From Bacteroidota bacterium (GTDB lineage Bacteria > Bacteroidota > Ignavibacteria > UBA10030): DNA of 64,000 nucleotides. The notes below the pieces were generated by a model that was given only the letters and a program-made list of their open reading frames with translations, had not been told where the DNA came from and made no database searches. The DNA lies in NCBI GenBank assembly GCA_040901865.1, contig JBBDYD010000137.1, positions 13,089 through 77,088 of the forward strand, in the 5' to 3' direction. The first letter of the stretch is position 1. Every line of letters begins with the position of its first letter. The position numbers were made by a program, and so were the translations under genes. Positions 27,060-51,988 of this stretch are shown piece by piece.

Positions 27060-29693
27060 ATGTTTGAGCAACGCTCTCGCATTCCGGTTGAACAGCGAAG
27101 CTACGGCCGATTTTACATTGCATTCAGCGCGATTCTGTTCCTCGGCACTGTCTGGGCTGTTTGGGATGAAGTGACGGTCCGTCGCCCGTGGAAAGATTAC
27201 CAGGAAGTGTTCTATGCAACGTTATACCAGCGGCTGGATTCACTAAAGCAAGCGGCGGTTTCGGAAATTGATTCCAGTGAAATTGCTGCCTTTGAATCCG
27301 CATTACGCGATGCGCAAGCAGCGTTGAAAACCGATGGATACCTTCAGGCCGCCGAGAAGAAGACGGCATTGCTGGGCGATCTGGAAAATGCAACCCGCGA
27401 ATGGCGATTTGCCAGAAGCAGGTCCGATGCTGCATACTACCAGTATCAAAAGACCGCCTTGTCTGGGGCGGACGCATCATCAGAAAAAGCAGAGGTGGAG
27501 CATCACGACGCACGGATTGCAGAATATGCTGCTGAGATGGCAAACCTGCAGGCACAGATTGCCGTTTATGATACGACAGTCAATATATACGTCGACGCTG
27601 TTCTCAGAGCAACGGCCGATCTTCGCGGACTCTATGTAGCAGCCGACGCCTTCAACTTGAAGCTTGAACTGGCTTCAAGGGCGCCTCGTGATATCAAACA
27701 AGTGATGTTGCCTGATTTCGAATATACTCCGTTCACAGAGATCAAAGCGCGTATCGACCGGTGTCAGACGTGTCACCTGGGCTGGGGGGAAAGCGTCATG
27801 GAGGATGCTCCCCAACCATTTACCAAACATCCGCTGCCAGAGTTGCTCGCAGTCCACAATCCGGAAACCTTCGGATGCACGCCTTGTCATCGCGGTCAGG
27901 GACCGGCCCTGACAGAGGGGTTTGCCCATGGTTTTGAGGACAAACATTGGGAAACACCAATCCTCAAAGGTGTCGAAACCTATGCGACATGCAATACATG
28001 CCATTCTGAAGAAACCGTCCTCAAACACGCGAAACCATTTACGAAGGCCAAACAAATCGTTCTGGAATCCGGTTGCTATGGATGCCATGAGATTAAGGGA
28101 TACACGAATCCTCCCAAAATCGGTCCCGTGTTGAACTCGTTGACCTCGAAAACAACGCCGGAATGGATCTATCGTTGGGTCAAGAATCCAAAAGACTACA
28201 ATCCGCACACGAGAATGCCGAATTTTGAATTTGGAGACAGCGATGCCGAGGCAATCACAGCGTATCTCGTGAAGATCGGACGAGAATCGGACTTCGCTCC
28301 GCAACGGTCCCGCGGCTCATTTGCTGGCGGAAGTGCGTCCCGCGGCAAGGAACTTTTCGAAACAGTTGGATGTCAGGCTTGCCACGTAGCAGGGGGATAC
28401 ACCGCGGTGCGGGATGAACGAGGGACAAGCTATGATGTTGCCCCGGAACTTACGCGCGTTGGCAGCAAGGTGACCGCGGACTGGCTCTTTGATTGGCTCA
28501 AGAATCCCCGCCATTACAATCCGACAACCAGAATGCCAAGCCTCCGCCTCACAGACGACGAAGCACGGAACCTTGTTGCATTCCTCGTGTTGCAAAAGGA
28601 CGAGCGAAGCCTGCCTCGGGTAACGCTTGACCTTGGAAGTCCGGAGAAGATCGCGCGCGGGGATGCTTTGATCCGTGAATTCGGATGCGCTGGGTGCCAT
28701 GAGATCAAGGGAATGGAGCGGGAGGGGAAAGTCAGTGTTGATCTTTCCGACTTCGGCAGAAAGAAAGTCGAGCAAATGGATTTCGGAAACACCCTGCCGC
28801 TCGGTAAGAATACGGATATTGAGTACCAGAAGAATGCGGATGGCACGGTATCGGTCAAGCACACCTGGGCTGGCTGGGTGAAGGGGAAATTGAACAATTC
28901 GAGATTGTACATAACAGAACGAATTGCGCAAAAGATGCCGATCTTTTCGTTTAATGATGAGGAAATAGCGCTGATCCGAACGTTTTTGGTCAGCATGACC
29001 CGAGATGCTCCGCTACCCACGTACCAACATGATTTTACAAAGCGGGTGAAGGACCTTGAAGCCGGGAGGCGACTGTCTGTACAGTATAATTGCATCCAGT
29101 GTCATTCGCTCGAGGATCGGGGAGCATTCATGACAGTGAAATACGAGGATCCCGGGCTCGGACCTCCTCCGCTTCCGGAAAGCCAGGGAGCAAAAGTGCA
29201 GGAACAATGGCTCCATAGCTTCCTCAGGAATCCGACGACCGTTCGCCCGTGGCTGAAACTCCGGATGCCGACGTTTCAGTTGTCCGACCAGGAAATCGGC
29301 ACAATCCAAAAGTACTTCCTTGCAATGTCAAATCAGGATTTTGTAATTCGGGACTATGCCGCCACGACTGTGGAAGCGAAGTACGCGAGCCCGGGGAGAA
29401 AGCTGTTTGAGCTCTATCAGTGCGCCAAGTGTCATCCCTCCGGCACGGCGGACCTGTCGGAACTTTCAGCTTCGGATCTCGCGCCGGACCTTTCGCTGGC
29501 GGCCTCACGTCTCAAGCCGGAGTGGATTGTTGAATGGATTATCGATCCCCAAAAGTTGCAACCGGGAACGCGCATGCCCACGTTCTTTTATGACGGAGAG
29601 GCACCCGATCAGGAAACGCTCGGCGGAGATGTTCGGGAACAGGCGAAGGCTTTGTCAGCTCACATCTGGAATCTCGGGAAACGAAATCGTTAA
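27060..29693 (+). CDS. Membrane-anchored octaheme c-type cytochrome (877 aa)
   Basis: AAGGAG SD. N-terminal TM helix YIAFSAILFLGTVWAVW. Eight CxxCH motifs: CQTCH, CTPCH, CNTCH, CYGCH, CQACH, CAGCH, CIQCH, CAKCH. Confidence 0.85.
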   Translation: MFEQRSRIPVEQRSYGRFYIAFSAILFLGTVWAVWDEVTVRRPWKDYQEVFYATLYQRLDSLKQAAVSEIDSSEIAAFESALRDAQAALKTDGYLQAAEKKTALLGDLENATREWRFARSRSDAAYYQYQKTALSGADASSEKAEVEHHDARIAEYAAEMANLQAQIAVYDTTVNIYVDAVLRATADLRGLYVAADAFNLKLELASRAPRDIKQVMLPDFEYTPFTEIKARIDRCQTCHLGWGESVMEDAPQPFTKHPLPELLAVHNPETFGCTPCHRGQGPALTEGFAHGFEDKHWETPILKGVETYATCNTCHSEETVLKHAKPFTKAKQIVLESGCYGCHEIKGYTNPPKIGPVLNSLTSKTTPEWIYRWVKNPKDYNPHTRMPNFEFGDSDAEAITAYLVKIGRESDFAPQRSRGSFAGGSASRGKELFETVGCQACHVAGGYTAVRDERGTSYDVAPELTRVGSKVTADWLFDWLKNPRHYNPTTRMPSLRLTDDEARNLVAFLVLQKDERSLPRVTLDLGSPEKIARGDALIREFGCAGCHEIKGMEREGKVSVDLSDFGRKKVEQMDFGNTLPLGKNTDIEYQKNADGTVSVKHTWAGWVKGKLNNSRLYITERIAQKMPIFSFNDEEIALIRTFLVSMTRDAPLPTYQHDFTKRVKDLEAGRRLSVQYNCIQCHSLEDRGAFMTVKYEDPGLGPPPLPESQGAKVQEQWLHSFLRNPTTVRPWLKLRMPTFQLSDQEIGTIQKYFLAMSNQDFVIRDYAATTVEAKYASPGRKLFELYQCAKCHPSGTADLSELSASDLAPDLSLAASRLKPEWIVEWIIDPQKLQPGTRMPTFFYDGEAPDQETLGGDVREQAKALSAHIWNLGKRNR

Positions 29694-42160: not shown

Positions 42161-43192
42161 CTAAAACGCGTCCAGCAATGCATTGAAAGGGTGGATCTTC
42201 AGCGTGCAAACACACTGATGGCACTCCTTCAGCCGATACGCCCGTACATCGGTTCTTGTTTCCCTGATCTCCGGTGTGTTAAGCAGATCCGGGAGCGGCC
42301 GCGATCTTACGTTCCCGAACGAGGGAAGGAAATAGCAAGGCAAAACATCTCCCGTTGAACTGATTACCAACGAAACAGACGGTGCGTTGCACTCGTTGCG
42401 TGGAAACGGAGAAATTCCCTGATGGGCTTCGAAATACTCAACCAGATGGATCATTTTTCCGGGAGTCTCAGCAATGAAATGGGTGAGAAATTCGGATTTC
42501 CGCTTTTGGAGCAAATCCTTCACCGATTCCCTGAATACCGCGCACTCTTCAGGATCCAAAAGGATGTCCACCGAAGGTGCAACAGGCCCGACTCGATCTC
42601 TGTGAAATGCATCTGATTGGACGTCCGCTGCGAGGAAGGAAAGCCTGTCGATTCCAAGCCCCTTCGCGAAAACGACCATCTCGTCCAGCTTTCTGAAATT
42701 CCGTCGTTGAACGACAAACCGGACGGAAAGAGATGGTTTGTTGGTGTTTCCGACCATCGCCTCAATACCCCTTACAATCTGATCAAAGCATTCTAATCCG
42801 CGTATCGAATTATGAGTCATGGCATCCGGCCCGTCAAGGGAGATGATGACCTCTTCGAAAAAGGGGAGGATTTCCTTCGCTCGTTTTTCAAGCAATAGCC
42901 CGTTGGTCAGAAGTGTTTGCCGGACACCGGTTCGCTCAGCAATTCTGCAGATTTCCAGAAAGTCTTTTCGCATGAGAGGTTCCCCACCGGAATAAACAAC
43001 GCGACGCAGGCCCATTTGCTGGAGATGCTTGAAAAGCTCCTTGTATTCATCAACAGTCATCTCGCTCGGAAGGGGATCGCGATATGAACAGGTCATGCAG
43101 CGAAGGTTGCAGCCGGCGGTCACGTAGAGAATGACGATCGGAAGAGAATGCGCCCGGGTGCCAACAGTATTCAGAAAGGCCCGATAGTTCAT
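42161..43192 (-). CDS. Radical SAM enzyme with a C-terminal SPASM/twitch-like Cys-rich domain
   Basis: CNLRCMTC (C28/C32/C35, CX3CX2C), SGGEPLM glycine-rich motif. The C-terminus has CNAPSVSLVISSTGDVLPC (CX12GX4C) and CHQCVC. Confidence 0.8.
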   Translation of the reverse strand: MNYRAFLNTVGTRAHSLPIVILYVTAGCNLRCMTCSYRDPLPSEMTVDEYKELFKHLQQMGLRRVVYSGGEPLMRKDFLEICRIAERTGVRQTLLTNGLLLEKRAKEILPFFEEVIISLDGPDAMTHNSIRGLECFDQIVRGIEAMVGNTNKPSLSVRFVVQRRNFRKLDEMVVFAKGLGIDRLSFLAADVQSDAFHRDRVGPVAPSVDILLDPEECAVFRESVKDLLQKRKSEFLTHFIAETPGKMIHLVEYFEAHQGISPFPRNECNAPSVSLVISSTGDVLPCYFLPSFGNVRSRPLPDLLNTPEIRETRTDVRAYRLKECHQCVCTLKIHPFNALLDAF

Positions 43193-43257
43193 TAAAGGCT
43201 TGTTTGTTTGTCCTTTGAGTCGAGGATGTCAGTCATTGAGCGGACAGGGCGCTGTTT

Positions 43258-44655
43258 CTAATAGAGTGATGAGATCTTGAAGGACCTGTAAATGAACTGA
43301 ACGGGCTCAGCAACAGAAGCTTCCCATCGTTTTCGCCCGAAAGGGTCGACCTCCACCAATCGCGGAACTCTGCCGTACGTAATAAACGTATGGCCACCTG
43401 GTAATCTCTGAGCGAACCCCAGTGCAGAAGAGTACAAAGGGGGTGTAGCACGGTATTCCCATACGAGAGTTGCCCGCTTCAGCTGCTCATCGAGGTGATA
43501 TTCCACGGCCCTGCTTTCCTGTGGGGATCGTCTGTTGCCGTTGTCAAAAAGGATAATATTCCTGTTCTCCAGGCGACGGATCCCATGCTGGTGCGAAAAG
43601 CCGTTGAAGGGATCGCCAACGAATTCAAACTCATTATTCTCCCCGCCAAGTCGCCAAACAATATTCCCCGAATTCGCATCGATTTGTGTTACCTCTTCGG
43701 TGTGTCGGAACGAAGCGAGGAGATTTCCGTCAACATCGATCTCGAGGGCATTGCCGTGCCAGGGATTGACATTCTGACCAAGGAGTGAAATGTTGTCTGC
43801 GGCATCGGTCACACTGAAGTGATCGAACGTGTTCCAATACAGAGGGACTGATTCCGGCCTGTAGTATTCTACCACAATCCCTTTTACAATCGCATTTGCG
43901 AGCCCCCCAAACTCCGACAGATCCATTTCGCGATATTCGATTCCGAACAAAACATGGGCATCTCCGTCGATCCGCAATTCATGAACATCGGTTTCCCGGT
44001 TTTCCCTTGCTTGATATGAGCGAACAATGGTCCCCAAAATATCCGCCTCATAAAATTGCGTTGCGTAACCGGGACGGGCAACACAGGCGGTGTAGTTTCC
44101 ATTCGGCTGTTTTTGAAAATCAATCACGGATCCTTCGAATCTTCGATACCAGAGTACATCGCCCACACTGTTAAAAATGACCCCATACGCATGAGCACCG
44201 GCACCTGTAAATCCGGCCATGACGTATCCCGGCGCCGGATTGTCGGATTCATGGATCACAAGTCGTGGCATATCGCTCGGAAGAGATCCCGTCGTAAAGG
44301 TGACGGAATCGCCGCTTCTTTCATGACCGTGTTGCGAGATTGCCACGGGCTTTGCCCAGTACGTTTTTTCCGGCTCCAATCCAAGGAGCGGAATTCGTAC
44401 CGCCTTGTTACCCACGGTCCTCAAGGGCGTGCGGAAATTCATGGACGTATCCGTCCCGTATTCAATTCTGACTGAGACCGCGTTATTGGTTCTGATCCTG
44501 CCAACTGCGCTGAGAATGTTCTCCGGGTTTCCCGATATGTTGAATTCCGTGATTTCCGGCGCGTCGATGGGATTTGAAATCTGAATACCGGTATCGCAAC
44601 CGAGCAGAATGAAAACGGAAACACCGGGGATAATAAACGCTCGAACGGTTGCCAC
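43258..44655 (-). CDS. Lipoprotein with arylsulfotransferase (ASST)-like beta-propeller
   Basis: Lipobox VFILLGC near the N-terminus. An FN3/Ig-like segment is followed by NPWHGNALEIDVDGNLLASFRHTEEVTQIDANSGNIVWRLGG and FSHQHGIRRLENRNIILFDNGN, which are typical of the ASST family. Confidence 0.65.
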   Translation of the reverse strand: MATVRAFIIPGVSVFILLGCDTGIQISNPIDAPEITEFNISGNPENILSAVGRIRTNNAVSVRIEYGTDTSMNFRTPLRTVGNKAVRIPLLGLEPEKTYWAKPVAISQHGHERSGDSVTFTTGSLPSDMPRLVIHESDNPAPGYVMAGFTGAGAHAYGVIFNSVGDVLWYRRFEGSVIDFQKQPNGNYTACVARPGYATQFYEADILGTIVRSYQARENRETDVHELRIDGDAHVLFGIEYREMDLSEFGGLANAIVKGIVVEYYRPESVPLYWNTFDHFSVTDAADNISLLGQNVNPWHGNALEIDVDGNLLASFRHTEEVTQIDANSGNIVWRLGGENNEFEFVGDPFNGFSHQHGIRRLENRNIILFDNGNRRSPQESRAVEYHLDEQLKRATLVWEYRATPPLYSSALGFAQRLPGGHTFITYGRVPRLVEVDPFGRKRWEASVAEPVQFIYRSFKISSLY

Positions 44656-44661
44656 GGTCGT

Positions 44662-46275
44662 TTACCTCGTTTCCTCGCTATTTCGGTTTCGGATACGGAT
44701 CAATGCAAACCTGGCTGGCGGTCGTCGGCCTCGAAGACGGGCAAGGAACGGTCGCAAATTCCAAACGAGGCCGTACGATGGGAAAAACATATCAACGGCA
44801 TACAACGCGCGGAGTTGATCAAGCCCGGTGAATGTCAGGTAACTGCCGGCAAATTCGCTTGTCAATGTCTCCCTTTCGTCGTGCGAAAAAGATTCGATTC
44901 TCTCTTTCATCATCGCTTCACCACTTTCCCCACTGCGATAAATAGGAGAATCAACAATATAGATGCATCCTTTCTGCTTCAACAGTGACATCATCTTCTT
45001 GATTGTTTCATAGGGATCATTCGCATAGTGAAGCGAAGCGTTAAAAATAATGACTTCAAAGGAGTGTTCCGCAAAAGGAAGGAAATCGAATTCCGCTCTC
45101 ACTAAGTTGAACCCGGGCTCCCCAATATCCCGTAACCGCTGAACAACGCCAAGCCCGTCCTCAGGATCCGTATTGGCATCAACGCCGGTAACGCTGTACC
45201 CCAAACGGGCCAGGCGAAGCGAGAGCCAGCAATTTCCGGCCCCAAGGTCGAGAATCTTTTGCGGATCAGTGTGGGTATCCTGAACCAAATGATCAATAAG
45301 GCAATCATAGGATTTGGCACGGATGGCCCACATATCCGAATGTTCGTTGCTCAGATCACGATAGGGAAGCTCATGGTAATAGCGCGGGTCTTTGTCTCCC
45401 CAACGCTCTTTTCGTCTTACCGATTGGTACGTGTTGAGAAACCGGCCGAGAATTGACTGACGGCTTGGGAGGATAAAATCCGGAATGCCATCAACGGTCT
45501 CAAAGAAGAATGATTCGTTTCTGCATTCCCATCCTCCCCGTGATTCCACCAGGGCTCCCCGACATGAAGGACAGTGGAGAATGTCATCCATACTTACGGA
45601 AGGTGTGAATTTGTAGACAAAGAAATCCTCAAAAAGCGTTTGGTGCTGATGAACACGCTGTGCCGTGAACTTGCACTCCGAGAACATTCTCAGAATGCGT
45701 TCGATATCAGCATCAGATGAGAGGATCAGCAGCAGATATCCCCCCGGTTTGAGGAATGCGGCGGCTTGTCGTGAGAATTCCTTGATGACGGACAAATTGC
45801 GTCCACCATAGAGGGCGGGATCGTCGGACGTGTTTTGCCGCTCGTCAAAATACGGGGGATTGAAGATAATCATGTCGAATACTTCGTGGGGGAGCGGATC
45901 AAAGAGAGAACCCTCCAGAACCCTTGTCGCGGAAGCGTATCCGTTCCGGCGAATATTCTCTGAAGCGCACTGGACCGCCTGCGGATTGATATCCGTTGCA
46001 GTCACACGGGCACCCTGACCGGCGGCCAAAAGGGCAAGAATCCCGGAACCGGTCCCCAAGTCGAGGACATGCTTTCCCCGAAGATCCAGAGAGGACAAAT
46101 ATCGAGCGAGGATCCTCCCACTCTTGAAAATACGCGGATGCATGACCGAAGGCTGGATCACAAACTCAAATCCGTTGTGGGATGTTGACACGGGCCGTTT
46201 CAGGCGGGCCCGGTAGAGGAGATTGAACGCAAGAAAATGATACGCAGGACGAAGAATTGCCGACAGGGATTTCAT
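44662..46275 (-). CDS. Fused double methyltransferase: NPPY-type MTase, Trm112-like linker, second class-I SAM MTase
   Basis: N domain VLDLGTGSGILALLAA plus IIFNPPYF. Linker LHCPSCRGAL...ETVDGIPDFILP. C domain ILDLGAGNCWLSLRLA ... IIFNASLHY. ATG 46275 is preferred over TTG 46284. Confidence 0.75.
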   Translation of the reverse strand: MKSLSAILRPAYHFLAFNLLYRARLKRPVSTSHNGFEFVIQPSVMHPRIFKSGRILARYLSSLDLRGKHVLDLGTGSGILALLAAGQGARVTATDINPQAVQCASENIRRNGYASATRVLEGSLFDPLPHEVFDMIIFNPPYFDERQNTSDDPALYGGRNLSVIKEFSRQAAAFLKPGGYLLLILSSDADIERILRMFSECKFTAQRVHQHQTLFEDFFVYKFTPSVSMDDILHCPSCRGALVESRGGWECRNESFFFETVDGIPDFILPSRQSILGRFLNTYQSVRRKERWGDKDPRYYHELPYRDLSNEHSDMWAIRAKSYDCLIDHLVQDTHTDPQKILDLGAGNCWLSLRLARLGYSVTGVDANTDPEDGLGVVQRLRDIGEPGFNLVRAEFDFLPFAEHSFEVIIFNASLHYANDPYETIKKMMSLLKQKGCIYIVDSPIYRSGESGEAMMKERIESFSHDERETLTSEFAGSYLTFTGLDQLRALYAVDMFFPSYGLVWNLRPFLARLRGRRPPARFALIRIRNRNSEETR

Positions 46276-46314
46276 GCAGTTCAATGGAACGGAATTATCG
46301 TAGGAGGAATGCGT

Positions 46315-47793
46315 TCAAAGCCCTTCGATCTCCGGCTGGCGGTACCGAAAGAGACGAAAGAGCAATCGTAGTTCCAGGGGATATGAATACATCTCGGCAT
46401 TGTACCTCCATCGCGTGACAAGGCGCAGCAACTCCCGCCTCTTCTCCGTAAGCCGAATATCTGTCACGGTCGGAAAGAACCCATTGAGGACACGCTCGAA
46501 ATTCTTGAACGTTGCGTAATGCCGGGGCTTCAGCCAGGGAATAACGGGAGTTTTCCTCAGATCAAAATCGTGCCATTTCGGATCGAGCCACTCGTCCAGT
46601 GTTTGCGGGAAACGGAATCCATATTGGCCGGCGAGCCGGAAAAGTTCGGATTCATCAAAAACCACCGGAGCGTACATATACATGATAATCTCCGCCCGCG
46701 GATTTATTTCTTTGATCTTCCGTATGAATCGGATATTCCGGTCAAAGTCCCTGTCAACGTCGTCGCTTGGGCTTCCAAAAACAAAGGAGAATTCCGGGAT
46801 AATGTTGAAACGCTTCAGCCTCTCGGCAAGCAAGAGGACTGTGTCAGGTGTCTGCGTTCCCCCCTTGTTCATTTGCTTCAGTGTATCTTCGGAAGCAGAC
46901 TCGGCGCCAAAGAAGATCATTTTCGATCCGCCCCGAGCCATCAAGTCAAGTGTCTCGTCCGAATAATCTAAAACCGTGTCCGGACGCCCTTCGCCCCACC
47001 AGGCGAGATTGCGGCCGATCAGCTTCGTGGCAACCTCATGTGTCCGCTTTTCGGATGTGAAGAAATTCTCGTCGAAAAACTCCACCGCATTGATCTGATA
47101 CCGACGCTTAAGTTCATCCAGGTCATTCACAATCGATTCTGCAGATTTTGGCAGCCAGCGTGCCTGATACACACTGGCGATTGCACAGAAACCGCAGAGG
47201 AACGGACACCCAAAACTCGAATAGTATGCCGCTGTCCTGGTGCCTAGTGAGGATTTCCCAATATAGCGTTCTCCCTCCACCTTGTCGTAGGGAAGCGGGG
47301 GGAGGAGATTCGGATCGCTTGGACTCCTCAAAGGATTCTGGATTACCTGTCCGTTTCTGCGGAACGAGAGCCCGGGAATTTCGCCGAGGCCCACTCGGCT
47401 ATTGTTCTCGAGCGTATCGATGAGTTCTACAAACGTCTTGTCGCCCTGTCCTCTGACAACATAGTCCACATATCCCGAGGTAAGGACAGTGCCGGCATGG
47501 AGAGTGGAAAAATATCCGCCCCAAATGATGGTAAGGTCGGGGAACCGCTGTTTGAGCCCACGGGAAATCGGAATGGCCTGCATCAATTGAGGCCCTGGCA
47601 TCACCGTAAGACCGAGATACTTGATCTCCCCGCGAGCAACGAGGGCCTCAAGATCTTTCAGGATATGCGGAACTAGGTTCTGGTCAAGGATCCTATAGGG
47701 ATACCTGCCCTCGAGAGCGGTCGCCACGAACATGAGCGAAAGCGGAAAGCGATGTTTCCAGCGGGCGCTTGTGGGATTGAGAAGAGCAATCAT
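46315..47793 (-). CDS. Class-B (B12-binding domain) radical SAM protein, copy 2
   Basis: N-terminal Rossmann-like region (FPLSLMFVATAL, VDYVVRGQGDKTFVELI) followed by FGCPFLCGFCAIAS (CX3CX2C). Confidence 0.8.
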   Translation of the reverse strand: MIALLNPTSARWKHRFPLSLMFVATALEGRYPYRILDQNLVPHILKDLEALVARGEIKYLGLTVMPGPQLMQAIPISRGLKQRFPDLTIIWGGYFSTLHAGTVLTSGYVDYVVRGQGDKTFVELIDTLENNSRVGLGEIPGLSFRRNGQVIQNPLRSPSDPNLLPPLPYDKVEGERYIGKSSLGTRTAAYYSSFGCPFLCGFCAIASVYQARWLPKSAESIVNDLDELKRRYQINAVEFFDENFFTSEKRTHEVATKLIGRNLAWWGEGRPDTVLDYSDETLDLMARGGSKMIFFGAESASEDTLKQMNKGGTQTPDTVLLLAERLKRFNIIPEFSFVFGSPSDDVDRDFDRNIRFIRKIKEINPRAEIIMYMYAPVVFDESELFRLAGQYGFRFPQTLDEWLDPKWHDFDLRKTPVIPWLKPRHYATFKNFERVLNGFFPTVTDIRLTEKRRELLRLVTRWRYNAEMYSYPLELRLLFRLFRYRQPEIEGL

Positions 47794-48656
47794 GTGGATT
47801 TGTTTTCTGCGGGACCAATTAAAGACCGAAGAGCCTCATCAACACCGATGAGGGCTTCATTGGAAGCAACAAGCCGCCGCAGGATGTCAAGTTCCAGAAC
47901 TGAATCATGGCCGAGACCGCCCGGGGAGATGCTCGATGTTCCGTCGCGGTTCCCCAAGGGGTGAAGTTCCGGACCGTTGGTTGAGAGATGGCCGCCGCCG
48001 TGGTAAAACGTCATACCGGTAACATTAACGTGTTCTGGCATGAATCCGAGGACATCGACCAGAGCAATGAACCCGGTCCTTCCCCAATTGCCATTCAGCC
48101 ATTTGATCAAGAGGGTGCTTGCGGTCGTGACAACGCGGAACCGTGTCTCTGGCACTTCGGCGGCAAGGAACCCGGCGAAGTTCTTGAGAACATCTCTGTC
48201 TTTCACTTCGCAGCGCGTTGCGGGATCTCCGTTCGGAGCATAGCTCAAACTGTTATTCGTGCAAACGACGCACTTCAATTTCGCTTTTCGGACAAAGTCG
48301 GTAAAACGGCGTCTGGCGAATCCACCCTCGAGGATGTTCTTACGAATGATGACCTGATTGCAGTACAGGACATCCGTCCGCGAGCCGATGTCAGCGGAAA
48401 GCGGCTTGGAATCTCTGAAATACTCAAACGCGTCATTGAAGCGGACAACGAGATCGTGCGAATCGATCCATTTCCCACGGCTCGCTCCGATTAGTGTTCG
48501 AGCAGGTCCGACGACCGCCACGCGTTTCTTCGCAAGGAGGCCTGTAAACGCCGGATCACGGTCCCAGGCCAACCGCCCGTCACGGATCATCTGCAATTCC
48601 AGGTCGGGAATAGCAGAGGGCCTGTGAGCATTCTGAGATACCGCCGAATGATTCAT
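47790..48656 (-). CDS. GT29 (eukaryote-type sialyltransferase)-like protein
   Basis: RVAVVGPARTLIGASRGKWIDSHDLVVRFNDA...DIGSRTDVLYCN resembles sialyl motif L. RTGFIALVDVLGFMPEHVNVTGMTFY resembles motif S. HDSVLE fits motif VS (H-x4-E). Recognised from memory of the consensus only. Confidence 0.5.
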   Translation of the reverse strand: MNHSAVSQNAHRPSAIPDLELQMIRDGRLAWDRDPAFTGLLAKKRVAVVGPARTLIGASRGKWIDSHDLVVRFNDAFEYFRDSKPLSADIGSRTDVLYCNQVIIRKNILEGGFARRRFTDFVRKAKLKCVVCTNNSLSYAPNGDPATRCEVKDRDVLKNFAGFLAAEVPETRFRVVTTASTLLIKWLNGNWGRTGFIALVDVLGFMPEHVNVTGMTFYHGGGHLSTNGPELHPLGNRDGTSSISPGGLGHDSVLELDILRRLVASNEALIGVDEALRSLIGPAENKST

Positions 48657-49510
48657 TGATGATCCCGGATTGTGACGGCCGTGTGGTTCCTTTGAAGAAG
48701 GACAAGATAATGATCTCCCATCCCGCGCAATAAGGGGAGTTTGCCAACACGAACATCCAGGCCGTCGAGCATTTTGCTTATCCTCGGTAATCGATTCCTG
48801 AAGGCTTGAGCATGCGGGGGAGGGCTGAAGAGGGAAAGTCCCCGAATCATGACCGGATCAAACCAGGGCGAGGCGATTGAGAGCAGTCGTCGGAGGGGAT
48901 GATAATGCACTTCAAATGAGTGTTGGTGGAATCCTGTTGCGCGCACGCCGGATTGAAATCGGCGGAATGCAGACCGGGGGCGCAAACGAGCAAGGCCTGC
49001 GCTGATCTCCCAAAAGCAGGCTCTGGGCATGACGACCCCGAGAAAGTATCCCTTCGGATGTATTGCTCTTGCAACACGAGCGAAAACTGGATCAAGCGAA
49101 TTGGAACAATTCAATCCTCCGAAATTCGAAAGGACAAGGTCAAACGTCCTGCTTCCCAATGAGGACAGGTCTTCAAAAGAGGAGACGAAGAACTCCGTTT
49201 TCAACCCCGGATTCCTGGACGATCGTTTTGCCGCCTGGTCTATCATGCCCGGTGAGACATCGACGCCGGTAATGGAATACCCATCGGCGGCAAGTGCGAG
49301 CGCATCGATGCCGACTCCGCAGTTGATGTCGAGGATTGACGAACCGTGGGGAAGTACGTCACGGATTGATTCATAAACGGTTGTTCGGATTTTCGCCGTG
49401 ACTTCGTTCTCGAACGTCGATTCAAAGATCGGTGCAATTGCACTGAACGCATCGGCAACATCGGTATGCTGGAAATCGGACTCAGGCATGGGTGGGGGAG
49501 GTGCGTTCAA
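48653..49510 (-). CDS. Class-I SAM-dependent methyltransferase
   Basis: Motif I ILDINCGVGIDALALAADG, motif II-like DLVLSNFGGLN; 285 aa. Confidence 0.8.
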   Translation of the reverse strand: MNAPPPPMPESDFQHTDVADAFSAIAPIFESTFENEVTAKIRTTVYESIRDVLPHGSSILDINCGVGIDALALAADGYSITGVDVSPGMIDQAAKRSSRNPGLKTEFFVSSFEDLSSLGSRTFDLVLSNFGGLNCSNSLDPVFARVARAIHPKGYFLGVVMPRACFWEISAGLARLRPRSAFRRFQSGVRATGFHQHSFEVHYHPLRRLLSIASPWFDPVMIRGLSLFSPPPHAQAFRNRLPRISKMLDGLDVRVGKLPLLRGMGDHYLVLLQRNHTAVTIRDHQ

Positions 49511-50969
49511 GCTCCTTCAAGGCCCGTAGGTGATGGGGGAGCGTGATGCCGTGAACCATCATGGAAGCCAGTATTTCGAGAGAACGCCGGTTGACGGAGG
49601 CAGGGCGGACCGAGAGGTCCCGGAGCGTTCTCATGCCCCTCCAAATCCTGAACCGCTTGTGAACCACGGTGTGGAGCACGTGGTAATACTGCCGGCTGAA
49701 CGCGGCCTGAACCATTGGGTCAAAGTCATCACTCGTTTCCCAATTTTGCTTTGCTCCTAATTGGGCTTTGACGCGATCGTAGAATTTCGTTCCAGGAAGC
49801 GGGTACGAGACAGAAATGCCAATTTCATCGGGTTCGAGCCGCCTGACCATGCAAACGGTTTTTTCGATGTCTTCACTGGTTTCACCCGGGTACCCGAACT
49901 GGAGAAAGAAACCAACCCGAATACCGGCATCGCGAAGCATCTCGGTCGCCTGCCCGATTTCCTCGACTGTTGTCCCTTTTTCCATCGCGTCAAGTATCTT
50001 CTGGGATCCGGATTCCGCTCCAACCCAAACCGTCTTGCACCCTGCAGTCTTCAGATGACGGATCGTGTCGTCCCGTAGCAGGAGATCCACGCGTGAGAGA
50101 CACTTGAAGGGTATCGCCGCTCCCTCTCTTTGCACAAGTTCAGCAAATTGTCCAATCCAGCCAGGCTTTAATCCAAATATATCGTCGGTGATCCAGAGGT
50201 GATCGGGATGGATATGGGTTTTAAGGAACTTCATCTCTGCAACGACGTTCTCCGAACTCCGGCTGTTATACACCTGGCCATACAATGGCTTTGAACACCA
50301 ATTACAATGGAAGGGACATCCGCGTGTTGTGGAAATATTGAGGGAAAAATACCCATGCCGCTCTTTCCATATGGCCCGATATCGCTCGATGTCCACCAGA
50401 TCCCAGGCAGGGAAGGGGATCTCGTCAAGGTTCTTTATCGGAGGGCGTCGTGTGGTCAGTACTACCTCGCCTGTTGAATCACGAAACGCCAGGCCTTTGA
50501 TTCCAGATGCATCTGTTCCGGATTTCCGGAGCAACAGCGTGCAGAGTTCTGCCAGAGTCTCCTCTCCTTCACCACAAAGCACATAATCCACGTTACGGGA
50601 AAGATATTTCTCTGCATGATCCGCCGAGTCTGAGCTAAACACAACGACCGTACAGTGTTTCTCCTTTGCATAGAAAGCGAGCTGAAGGGCCGCCTGCCGC
50701 ATTCTGCTCAAACACATCTTTGTCAAATAATTAAAGCAATCATCATAAATCACCACGATGCGTGGTGCCTGCAAGTTCAGGGCCGGAATGATTTCCGATT
50801 CCTGTTCTGAAAGCATCACATCATGGAGACCGACCGAGAATCCCTTGTTCCGGAGGTATGCCGCCGCGGTGATGGTGCCAAGCGGCGGATACGGCATGTG
50901 GGCCCGGAGCTCTTTGGGATCAAAATGGAGGAAGTAGGAATGCGTGAAAAGAATGTCGGTCATGACCAC
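49482..50969 (-). CDS. Class-B (B12-binding domain) radical SAM protein, copy 1
   Basis: YPPLGTITAAAYLRNKGFSV and DYVLCGEGEETLAEL in the N-terminal domain, then TTRGCPFHCNWCSKP (CX3CX2C) and GAESGSQKILD. Confidence 0.85.
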   Translation of the reverse strand: MVMTDILFTHSYFLHFDPKELRAHMPYPPLGTITAAAYLRNKGFSVGLHDVMLSEQESEIIPALNLQAPRIVVIYDDCFNYLTKMCLSRMRQAALQLAFYAKEKHCTVVVFSSDSADHAEKYLSRNVDYVLCGEGEETLAELCTLLLRKSGTDASGIKGLAFRDSTGEVVLTTRRPPIKNLDEIPFPAWDLVDIERYRAIWKERHGYFSLNISTTRGCPFHCNWCSKPLYGQVYNSRSSENVVAEMKFLKTHIHPDHLWITDDIFGLKPGWIGQFAELVQREGAAIPFKCLSRVDLLLRDDTIRHLKTAGCKTVWVGAESGSQKILDAMEKGTTVEEIGQATEMLRDAGIRVGFFLQFGYPGETSEDIEKTVCMVRRLEPDEIGISVSYPLPGTKFYDRVKAQLGAKQNWETSDDFDPMVQAAFSRQYYHVLHTVVHKRFRIWRGMRTLRDLSVRPASVNRRSLEILASMMVHGITLPHHLRALKELERTSPTHA

Positions 50970-51988
50970 TTCTCCGGCGCATCATCAAGTCCGAAGGCAG
51001 CGAGCCGTTTGGAATACTCCTGGAGGATCCGGGAAAGGAAATCACCGGCATAAGCGGTTGAGATCGACTCTTCTGTCCGGAACAGCTTGAGGAGTTTGTC
51101 CTCCGGCAAATGGAGGTAACGCTTTCGCCAGACGGCCCCCCACCATTGCATGAGTCGTTGGTCAAGACGATCTCCGAATGCACCCTTCAGAGGCAGTTCG
51201 AGAAACTTCTGAAAGAGACCTTGCGGTGGCGCCGCGACTCCTTCAGTGGAAACCGAGTGAATGTTGGGATAATATTCGCGGATCCAGGGATTAGAAACAG
51301 CGAGGCGGGAAAAGAAAGGAGCGTTGAACAAGGGTGTAAGCGTTGCAATCTCGAGGGCGATGTATCTGTTCTTTTCGGACACGGAGTAGTAGTCCTCTGC
51401 AATAAAGTGGTTCACGCAGAAAAATTTCTTTTGGTTCAACAAAAAAACTTTTTTGAAAAGGATGAGGATCGTTCGGGTAATCCAAACGCGTTTCGGCGCT
51501 GTCACGACCACAAGGTCGATATCTCCATCTTGAGAGACGACCCCCTTGGAAAGTTCTCCCGAAACCCCAAGTCCTCGGACAAAGGGACATCGTCTGATAA
51601 CCCACGCCATCGCTTTGGCGATTTTCATGAACCATCGCGCGCGCTGTTCGTTTAAACGCCGATCGACGACAGGATTCGTCTCGCTCTGCGAAAGATAATA
51701 CAGTCCCTGGTCCTCTCGCAGGAGTGCGGAAAGGGGTGGGTTCACGCACGCGTGATGAACTTCCGCGAGTGAGGTTGAATTGGAAGGAAGGTAAGTATAG
51801 ATTTCGTTGGAGCTCAGCGGGTAACGAAAAATATCGAAGTAGAGGATGGTCCTCAGCACGTCTCGTTGAAGTGGAGATGGTTCAGACAGCAAGAATGATC
51901 CTGACTCGTTGGCGGTCATTGGCCTATGATGGGAATTCCGGCGTGTGGAGAACCGATGAAAAAATGATACGAAAGAAACGATACGCAC
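50960..51988 (-). CDS. Hypothetical protein with a nucleotidyltransferase-fold (Pol-beta-like) motif
   Basis: GVSGELSKGVVSQDGDIDLVVV fits the G[SG]...DxD minimal NTase pattern. GTG start at 51988, or ATG at 51919 (MTANESG). First gene of the cluster. Confidence 0.4.
   Translation of the reverse strand: MRIVSFVSFFHRFSTRRNSHHRPMTANESGSFLLSEPSPLQRDVLRTILYFDIFRYPLSSNEIYTYLPSNSTSLAEVHHACVNPPLSALLREDQGLYYLSQSETNPVVDRRLNEQRARWFMKIAKAMAWVIRRCPFVRGLGVSGELSKGVVSQDGDIDLVVVTAPKRVWITRTILILFKKVFLLNQKKFFCVNHFIAEDYYSVSEKNRYIALEIATLTPLFNAPFFSRLAVSNPWIREYYPNIHSVSTEGVAAPPQGLFQKFLELPLKGAFGDRLDQRLMQWWGAVWRKRYLHLPEDKLLKLFRTEESISTAYAGDFLSRILQEYSKRLAAFGLDDAPEKWS

Follow-up and report, generated by a model that had tools for sequence, protein, structure and literature searches.

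What would a protein with the sialyl motifs of eukaryotic sialyltransferases do in a bacterium, and on which donor and acceptor would it act? The question is raised by a stretch of 64,000 nucleotides (the window) from a Bacteroidota bacterium of the lineage Ignavibacteria, UBA10030 (assembly GCA_040901865.1, contig JBBDYD010000137.1, positions 13,089 to 77,088 of the forward strand). On its minus strand, at 47790..48656, the window encodes a predicted soluble glycosyltransferase of 288 residues related to glycosyltransferase family 29 (GT29), recognised by a match to the Pfam family PF00777, by its AlphaFold2 fold and by a set of invariant residues. A preliminary description of this DNA had likened three segments of the protein to sialyl motifs L, S and VS, and all three are present, at residues 46–100, 193–218 and 250–262 of the open reading frame (ORF). 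We consider it reasonably probable that the protein is a soluble bacterial GT29-type transferase of ulosonic acids activated with cytidine monophosphate (CMP), and that it serves as an interchangeable glycosyltransferase module acting on an envelope glycoconjugate that is also methylated.

Family, fold and motifs of the GT29-like protein

GT29 membership, as proposed in the preliminary description, is borne out by both profile and fold comparisons. The hidden Markov model PF00777 (Glyco_transf_29) matches the 288-residue protein with an E-value of 9.8e-8 and 32.2 bits, above the gathering cutoff of 23, in an alignment limited to residues 44–122 (motif L) and model positions 55–130, and the same model is matched individually by 39 of 40 family members. 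The GT42, GT52 and GT80 models, which the preliminary description had named for comparison, and the MptE model (PF01973) gave no match to the protein at E ≤ 1 in hmmscan. Compared with the PDB sequences, the family profile found ST3Gal1, ST6Gal1, ST8SiaIII and ST6GalNAc2 at E-values of 1e-5 to 3e-4 and nothing significant outside GT29; the single-sequence phmmer search against the PDB was weak (E ≥ 0.014), and sequence identity to the solved GT29 enzymes is 13–19%.

The AlphaFold2 model of the protein, built from a 40-sequence alignment, has a pLDDT of 87.7 and a pTM of 0.88. In a Foldseek comparison with the PDB, hits 1–30 are all GT29 sialyltransferases (E 8e-9 to 1.2e-5, template-modelling (TM) scores 0.39–0.54), as expected for the GT-A variant 2 fold that the preliminary description had anticipated. 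The next hit, at an E-value of 2e-3, is an archaeal MptE-type hydroxymethylpterin pyrophosphokinase (HPPK), itself a relative of the sialyltransferase fold, so that no unrelated Rossmann family matches better. No Cst-II or GT80 structure is among the PDB fold hits listed, and the viral structure library returned GT29 proteins of giant viruses, herpesviruses, poxviruses and a phage. We regard GT29-type homology and a GT-A variant 2 fold as close to certain. The protein is deposited at NCBI as MEX2117099.1 under the name "glycosyltransferase family 29 protein", and several homologues carry the GT29 label in the JGI annotation; standard annotation pipelines have already made the family assignment, and nothing is overturned here.

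Motif L spans residues 44–100 and aligns to motif L of ST3Gal1, ST6Gal1 and ST8SiaIII; its residues G50, D68, R72 and N74 are invariant in the 40-sequence alignment, and its leading Cys is replaced by Val. A putative motif S runs from R193-T-G to MTF217, with R193, T194 and G195 invariant in the same alignment, and the profile stretch wgRTGl aligns with YPSTGI at the start of motif S in ST3Gal1, a match that is co-linear and individually non-significant. Directly after it, where motif III would be expected, the invariant sequence F-Y-H-G-G-G-H (217–223) includes a motif III-like YHGGGH at 218–223, in which H219, G220–G222 and H223 are invariant across the 40 sequences. The motif III consensus is (H/Y)-Y-(Y/F/W/H)-(E/D/Q/G), and the stretch fits three of these four degenerate positions, a match at the level of pattern. 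Motif VS follows as H250-x4-E255, with H250, S252 and E255 invariant in the alignment. Motifs L and VS and the putative motif S are invariant or nearly so across about 40 homologues. Motif L, R-(T/M)-G-F, TFYHGGGH and H-(D/N)-S-x-x-E are common to the subclade of the window protein and to more distant members linked to CMP-sugar synthetases, and H250 and E255 are kept in all 21 of the locus-derived sequences, the CMP-synthetase-linked subclade included. In GT29 enzymes the histidine of motif VS is established as the catalytic base (PMC10225777), and by analogy H250 would have this role in the window protein. A CTNNS block (132–136) and an NRDG loop, in turn, are invariant in the window subclade and absent from the CMP-synthetase-linked subclade, and these may set specificity.

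With the eukaryotic and viral GT29 enzymes, of which ST3Gal1, ST6Gal1, ST8SiaIII and ST6GalNAc2 are examples, the window protein shares the Pfam family, the GT-A variant 2 fold, motif L, the S-like R-T-G and the H-x4-E of motif VS, whose His and Glu are invariant. As in these enzymes, there is no DXD motif, which fits a metal-independent inverting transfer from a CMP donor. Unlike the eukaryotic enzymes, the window protein has neither a signal anchor or transmembrane domain nor the cysteines of the disulfide between motifs L and S. For both reasons the protein would be cytoplasmic, and the preliminary description had found the substituted Cys positions in keeping with this; a soluble or cytoplasmic location is plausible also because no hydrophobic segment is present (the highest 19-residue Kyte-Doolittle mean is 1.13). 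It further differs from eukaryotic and viral GT29 in having its own invariant blocks (CTNNS, TFYHGGGH and the NRDG loop) at the low identity given above, and in the position of its gene inside an operon of radical S-adenosylmethionine (SAM) enzymes and methyltransferases. The donor is probably not N-acetylneuraminic acid (Neu5Ac).

The rarity and novelty that the preliminary description attached to GT29 in bacteria were overstated. The 23 bacterial GT29 sequences that Petit et al. published in 2018 carry sialyl motifs L, S, III and VS but have neither a transmembrane domain nor the disulfide cysteines (PMC5811610). The window protein resembles these in being soluble, in its motifs L and VS and its S- and III-like segments, in lacking the transmembrane domain and conserved cysteines and in having an uncharacterised function. 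Since the published bacterial proteins also lack both features, type II topology and the L–S disulfide define a eukaryotic subgroup and not the family. Eukaryotic GT29 has been argued to derive from bacteria, and bacterial GT29 is basal in the published phylogenies (PMC5811610). According to a 2023 review, the published bacterial members come from Alpha-, Gamma- and Epsilon-Proteobacteria only (PMC10225777). The clade of the window protein is found in other phyla, the two sets being compared here by their descriptions. Its hosts are Bacteroidota/Ignavibacteria, Acidobacteriota, Myxococcota and one cultured Verrucomicrobiota strain (Puniceicoccaceae K14), four phyla that fall outside the published bacterial GT29 set.

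A word-indexed search placed the homologues of this clade in 86 clusters, and an exhaustive search returned 68 representatives at E < 1e-30 and 3770 at E < 1e-3. The clade is rare, with 15 loci among approximately 186,000 species genomes, and all close homologues of the window protein come from metagenomes. The preliminary description had called for a phylogeny as a test of horizontal origin; a neighbour-joining tree supports terminal groups alone, among them the CMP-synthetase-linked group at 97% bootstrap, and its unsupported backbone decides neither the monophyly of the island-type sequences nor transfer between phyla.

The glycosyltransferase slot of a conserved island

The GT29-like gene overlaps both of its neighbours by four nucleotides, as the preliminary description had stated, and the ATGA junctions can be read directly. 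The upstream gene, for a class I SAM methyltransferase (48653..49510, minus strand; Methyltransf_25/11), ends in CAA TGA and shares ATGA with the ATG start of the GT29-like gene, whose stop in turn shares ATGA with the ATG of the downstream gene, for a B12-binding radical SAM enzyme identified by domain scan (B12-rSAM B; 46315..47793, minus strand). The GC content of the GT29-like gene (0.547; 0.599 at third codon positions) is in line with that of the adjacent housekeeping genes. All belong to a tightly packed minus-strand operon of eight genes at 42161–51988.

In Ignavibacteria-type Bacteroidota the syntenic island has the order nucleotidyltransferase (NTase)-like gene, B12-rSAM A, methyltransferase, glycosyltransferase slot, B12-rSAM B, double methyltransferase and radical SAM/SPASM enzyme. 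A tblastn comparison found this order repeated in nine other Ignavibacteria-type loci, where the GT29-like protein is 44–62% identical to that of the window. The radical SAM/SPASM gene is missing from L003 and L004 and conserved in L007–L009, L011–L013 and L015. Orthologues of B12-rSAM A, 58–83% identical, occupy the same site in all island variants. B12-rSAM B is 67–88% identical in most islands of the GT29 type (50% in L009) and 39–50% identical in those of the GT9 type; a B12-rSAM B of high identity, the double methyltransferase and usually the SPASM enzyme accompany the GT29-like gene.

In some lineages the coupled methyltransferase and GT29-like proteins are one chain. They form a single 565-residue polypeptide in an Ignavibacteriae metagenome-assembled genome (two assemblies, same site), and a second such fusion, P0088, occurs in another lineage; in the fusions P0087 and P0088 the methyltransferase part is 42–50% identical to the window methyltransferase. 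These observations bear on whether the motifs are a chance resemblance, or the gene is decayed or was recently transferred from a eukaryote to a bacterium without an integrated function. The low identity to solved GT29 enzymes and the weak phmmer result would fit such a reading. The PF00777 score above its curated cutoff, the strong conservation of the motifs among the 86 homologues, the synteny kept at 44–62% identity, the translational coupling and occasional fusion, the GC and third-position GC values that match those of the neighbours and the basal position of bacterial GT29 in published phylogenies (PMC5811610) all speak against it, and we judge it highly improbable. Recent horizontal transfer from a eukaryote in particular was rejected, there being no compositional anomaly and the synteny being deep.

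The site of the island, between PASTA/Rpe and Cdd/Tdk/NupC, carries other glycosyltransferases in three sister loci, L026, L027 and L028. These retain B12-rSAM A (58–63% identity) and the methyltransferase (33–44%), and the NTase-like gene is kept in L027 and L028 and missing from L026. After the methyltransferase there follow GT9 and GT87 in L026, GT9 and GT4 in L027, and GT9 and GT87 in L028, the GT9 calls having PF01075 scores of 84–103 bits. In L024 and L025 a GT87 gene stands at the position taken in the window by an arylsulfotransferase-like gene. The loci L022 and L023 of other Bacteroidota have the core of NTase-like, B12-rSAM and methyltransferase genes without any glycosyltransferase within their 20 kb. 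In L001 (positions 1–1192 of the locus, from the 847-kb JGI contig Ga0669118_0000013) a GT4 is fused to B12-rSAM A in a 931-residue protein, whose B12-rSAM domain is 53% identical to that of the window and whose cluster includes a Polysacc_synt flippase; this fusion points to a sugar as the target of radical methylation or of some other radical reaction.

The slot interchange, together with the fusions involving GT4 and the methyltransferase, marks the locus as a variable island that probably acts on a glycoconjugate and of which the GT29-like protein is one interchangeable glycosyltransferase module. GT9 enzymes are lipopolysaccharide (LPS) heptosyltransferases of the WaaC/WaaF type, and in the sister genomes they fill the same slot, directly after the orthologous methyltransferase. 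Because they share this slot, GT9 and the GT29-like protein would do an analogous step, the addition of a sugar to the same class of acceptor, even though GT9 differs in its unrelated GT-B fold and its donor of the ADP-heptose type. In the literature searched we found no description of a cassette of radical SAM, methyltransferase and GT29-like genes; the context of the island appears to be undescribed there, and so does the island itself appear to lack any characterisation.

In Ignavibacteria-type genomes the island between PASTA/Rpe and Cdd/Tdk/NupC is hypervariable (42161–51988 in the window; L024–L028 and L007–L015). Its constants are B12-rSAM A and the methyltransferase, usually after the NTase-like gene, and its variables are GT9, GT4, GT87 and GT29-like genes, one to five extra B12-rSAM genes, and genes for an amidohydrolase, a metallophosphoesterase or an arylsulfotransferase. 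A functional link between the GT29-like protein and Cdd/Tdk/NupC through recycling of CMP was considered and rejected: these genes flank every island variant, including L027, which has GT9 and GT4 and lacks GT29. They are 60–93% identical across loci, and we treat their proximity as lineage synteny.

Distant clade members and the possible donor

The preliminary description had reported no genes for CMP-nonulosonate synthesis nearby, and none for making 3-deoxy-D-manno-octulosonic acid (Kdo) or nonulosonates, or for activating them with CMP, is found anywhere in the 64-kb window. Clues to the donor come from distant members of the clade. In Puniceicoccaceae K14 (L021) a GT29-like homologue 35% identical to the window protein is followed immediately by a cytidylyltransferase of the CTP_transf_3 family, which comprises the synthetases of CMP-Kdo and CMP-NeuAc, and the surroundings hold GT4 genes, an MptE/Maf-like protein, an FkbM methyltransferase and a GFO/IDH/MocA oxidoreductase. 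The Myxococcota contig JANQEL010000078.1 (L019/L020) has three GT29-like paralogues, one of them in a 577-residue fusion, with a CTP_transf_3 gene approximately 1 kb from a GT29-like gene (L020), an MptE/Maf-like gene and B12-rSAM genes; by its gene content it looks like a rich glycosylation locus of the nonulosonate type. In L018 (Pyrinomonadaceae) the order is GT25-GT29-GT4-GT32, and other distant fusions join the GT29-like domain to GT8, to GT2 and to Capsule_synth domains of the KpsC/KpsS type.

The MptE/Maf-like genes (PF01973) that co-occur with clade members in L019 and L021 encode proteins which, like those of GT42 (Cst-I/Cst-II), are related in fold (GT-A variant 2 or sialyltransferase-like) and take CMP-nonulosonates as donors. 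The window protein differs from both groups in giving no Pfam match to their models and, with MptE HPPK, a weak fold hit.

Plant GT29 offers a second comparison. Its members have been proposed as transferases of CMP-Kdo and of 3-deoxy-D-lyxo-heptulosaric acid (Dha) for rhamnogalacturonan-II (PMC5811610; see also PMC11288761). They are GT29 proteins in organisms without sialic acid, with proposed use of CMP-Kdo; unlike the window protein, they are Golgi type II membrane proteins. Given this proposal, and since Gram-negative bacteria make CMP-Kdo for LPS and have it as their most available CMP-ulosonate, CMP-Kdo is a plausible donor even without a local synthesis gene.

In L005 and L006 (metagenome, Acidobacteriota-type) the orphan GT29-like gene is convergent with, and slightly overlaps, a gene for a RidA/Ribonuc_L-PSP protein of 407–488 residues, and at the corresponding position L016 (Acidobacteriota) encodes a 425-residue protein without a Pfam hit.

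Neighbouring enzymes and proposed function

The first gene of the island (50960..51988, minus strand) encodes a protein with a winged helix-turn-helix and a Pol-beta-type NTase-like domain, recognised by its motif and by weak fold hits; it gave no match to Pfam or NCBIfam. It has a GSx10DxD-like motif with D133 and D135 invariant, its AlphaFold2 model has a pLDDT of 90.6, and the fold matches are weak and consistent (MNT, DrrA, AadA, ANT(4') and Tam41; E 0.014–0.4). The family counts 89 homologues, mostly labelled 'hypothetical', of approximately 300–325 residues with an N-terminal winged-helix-like domain, and NCBI calls a 261-residue version in this genome. Given these two lengths, translation probably begins not with the GTG at 51988 but at M24, near 51919.

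This gene gives rise to an alternative with non-canonical chemistry: the NTase-like protein would put a nucleotide tag on an intermediate that is not an ulosonic acid, the B12-rSAM enzymes would methylate the tagged compound, and the enzyme with the GT29 fold would transfer or hydrolyse it. Fom3 of fosfomycin biosynthesis, whose substrate is cytidylyl-hydroxyethylphosphonate, offers a precedent. In favour are the presence of a dedicated NTase-like gene in an island without a CMP-sugar synthetase, the second-best fold relative MptE HPPK, which shows that the fold supports non-glycosyl chemistry, and the invariant CTNNS block and NRDG loop, which are missing from the subclade linked to CMP-sugar synthetases. 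Against this, the NTase-like gene also occurs with GT9, with GT4 or with no glycosyltransferase and is absent from L026, and for this reason is not specifically paired with the GT29-like gene; the NTase fold matches do not go below an E-value of 0.014, and homologues encoded beside true CMP-sugar synthetases share the catalytic His and Glu and motifs L and S with the window protein. We consider this alternative improbable.

B12-rSAM A (49482..50969, minus strand), the conserved core of the island, has Radical_SAM and B12-binding domains. Among solved structures, both B12-rSAM enzymes come closest to MgmA, the glutamine C-methyltransferase of methyl-coenzyme M reductase. The double methyltransferase (44662..46284, minus strand; 540 residues; Pfam MTS and Methyltransf_11) consists of an N-terminal N-methyltransferase of the HemK2/MTQ2 type with an NPPY motif and a C-terminal Methyltransf_11 domain; the N-terminal domain scores 105.9 bits against a cutoff of 87 for NCBIfam TIGR00537, the archaeal/eukaryotic-type HemK2/MTQ2 protein glutamine methyltransferase. 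Its relatives in the PDB are PrmA, N6AMT1, HemK and GenN. A Trm112-like zinc ribbon, suspected by eye from a CPxC in the linker between the two domains, is unsupported, the linker having given no Pfam hit. The radical SAM/SPASM enzyme (42161..43192, minus strand; Radical_SAM and SPASM domains), found at the end of most islands of the GT29 type, has the cytosylglucuronate decarboxylase BlsE as its best PDB relative (E 2e-14). Between the last two lies a gene for an arylsulfotransferase-like lipoprotein (43258..44655, minus strand; PF05935, 92.6 bits, lipobox-like N-terminus ending in ILLGC), which had no tblastn match in any other fetched locus; we therefore rejected it as a part of the system and regard it as an insertion specific to the window.

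These relatives raise the alternative of protein or peptide modification. The GT29-like protein would O-glycosylate a protein in the manner of the related flagellin nonulosonic-acid transferases of the Maf/MptE-like type, while the B12-rSAM enzymes would C-methylate side chains, the HemK2-type enzyme N-methylate amides and the SPASM enzyme cross-link or epimerise. The kinship with MgmA and the HemK2/MTQ2 score above the NCBIfam cutoff both favour this, as does a weak match of the SPASM enzyme to maturases of sactipeptides and other ribosomally synthesised and post-translationally modified peptides (RiPPs). The substrates of the remote radical SAM and methyltransferase relatives are not decisive: sugar-acting enzymes (AprD4, BlsE, GenN, ANT) are mixed with protein-acting ones (MgmA, HemK, PrmA), and the matches lie far under the equivalog cutoffs. 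In the 12 island-bearing loci no conserved free-standing small ORF was found in or beside the island, the only candidates being antisense shadows of large genes, and neighbouring genes are separated by no more than 72 nt; a RiPP cluster was rejected as the primary reading for want of such an ORF for the precursor, although a precursor gene elsewhere in the genome would lie beyond this comparison. The slot, moreover, holds GT9, GT4 or GT87 in sister genomes, and B12-rSAM A is fused to GT4 in L001. Modification of a protein or peptide is, in our estimation, unlikely.

We favour a CMP-ulosonate transferase acting on a glycoconjugate, and infer its donor, its acceptor, the direction and order of methylation and the envelope destination as follows. 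The GT29-like protein would bind a CMP-activated 2-keto-3-deoxy-ulosonic acid through motifs L and S, the donor being either CMP-Kdo made for LPS or a CMP-nonulosonate encoded elsewhere. With H250 of motif VS as the general base, a metal-independent, SN2-like inverting transfer to an acceptor hydroxyl would take place with release of CMP. The acceptor would be a cell-envelope glycoconjugate, possibly an LPS-core-like glycolipid, since GT9 alternates in the slot. The B12-rSAM enzymes would add C-methyl groups to this glycoconjugate and the SAM methyltransferases N- or O-methyl groups, and the adjacent methyltransferase, fused to the GT29-like protein in some lineages, would act on the same substrate. 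The NTase-like protein, B12-rSAM A and the class I methyltransferase would form the constant part of the island, and the glycosyltransferase and extra radical SAM and methyltransferase genes its variable part.

Several points weigh against the proposal. The literature searched yielded no functionally characterised prokaryotic GT29 and no enzymatic data for any. The TM-scores against GT29 structures are moderate (about 0.5), the PF00777 alignment covers motif L alone, and motifs S, III and VS are placed by pattern, family conservation and fold alignment at the level of the whole domain. The window has no gene for making or activating the donor, and the nearest homologues outside Ignavibacteria (Acidobacteriota, approximately 47% identity) are orphans with uninformative neighbours, the gene standing beside RidA-fusion proteins, kinases and proteases. 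MgmA, the closest solved relative of B12-rSAM A, modifies a protein, and HemK2-type methyltransferases normally methylate proteins, which makes a protein acceptor possible; the LPS-core assignment draws on GT9 family membership alone.

The whole 64 kb is core chromosome, with genes for NusA, IF-2, PNPase, AroA, BshC, the cytochrome bc complex and cytochrome oxidase, as well as nucleoside salvage, Rpe, NagA and GlnA. An 877-residue multi-haem cytochrome c (27060–29693, plus strand), encoded immediately before the cytochrome oxidase genes on their upstream side, has Cytochrom_C, CBB3 and MtrC/MtrF-like domain hits.

The clade widens the GT29 family to at least four more phyla, and its context is informative: the fusion to a methyltransferase, the alternation with GT9, GT4 and GT87 in one slot and the linkage to CMP-sugar synthetases, including that in a cultured Verrucomicrobiota isolate, make the donor and acceptor question of bacterial GT29 experimentally approachable. 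The island of B12-rSAM and methyltransferase genes may yield novel methylated envelope sugars. More speculatively, and with little likelihood in our view, the island could encode an undescribed pathway in which an ulosonic acid, or another CMP-tagged unit, receives C-methyl groups from B12-rSAM enzymes and N- or O-methyl groups from methyltransferases, either on the nucleotide-activated donor or after transfer by the GT29-like enzyme. If true, the Ignavibacteria envelope would bear heavily methylated acidic sugars of a new class. A function would then also have been assigned for the first time to a GT29 of prokaryotes, from which the eukaryotic sialyltransferases are proposed to descend.

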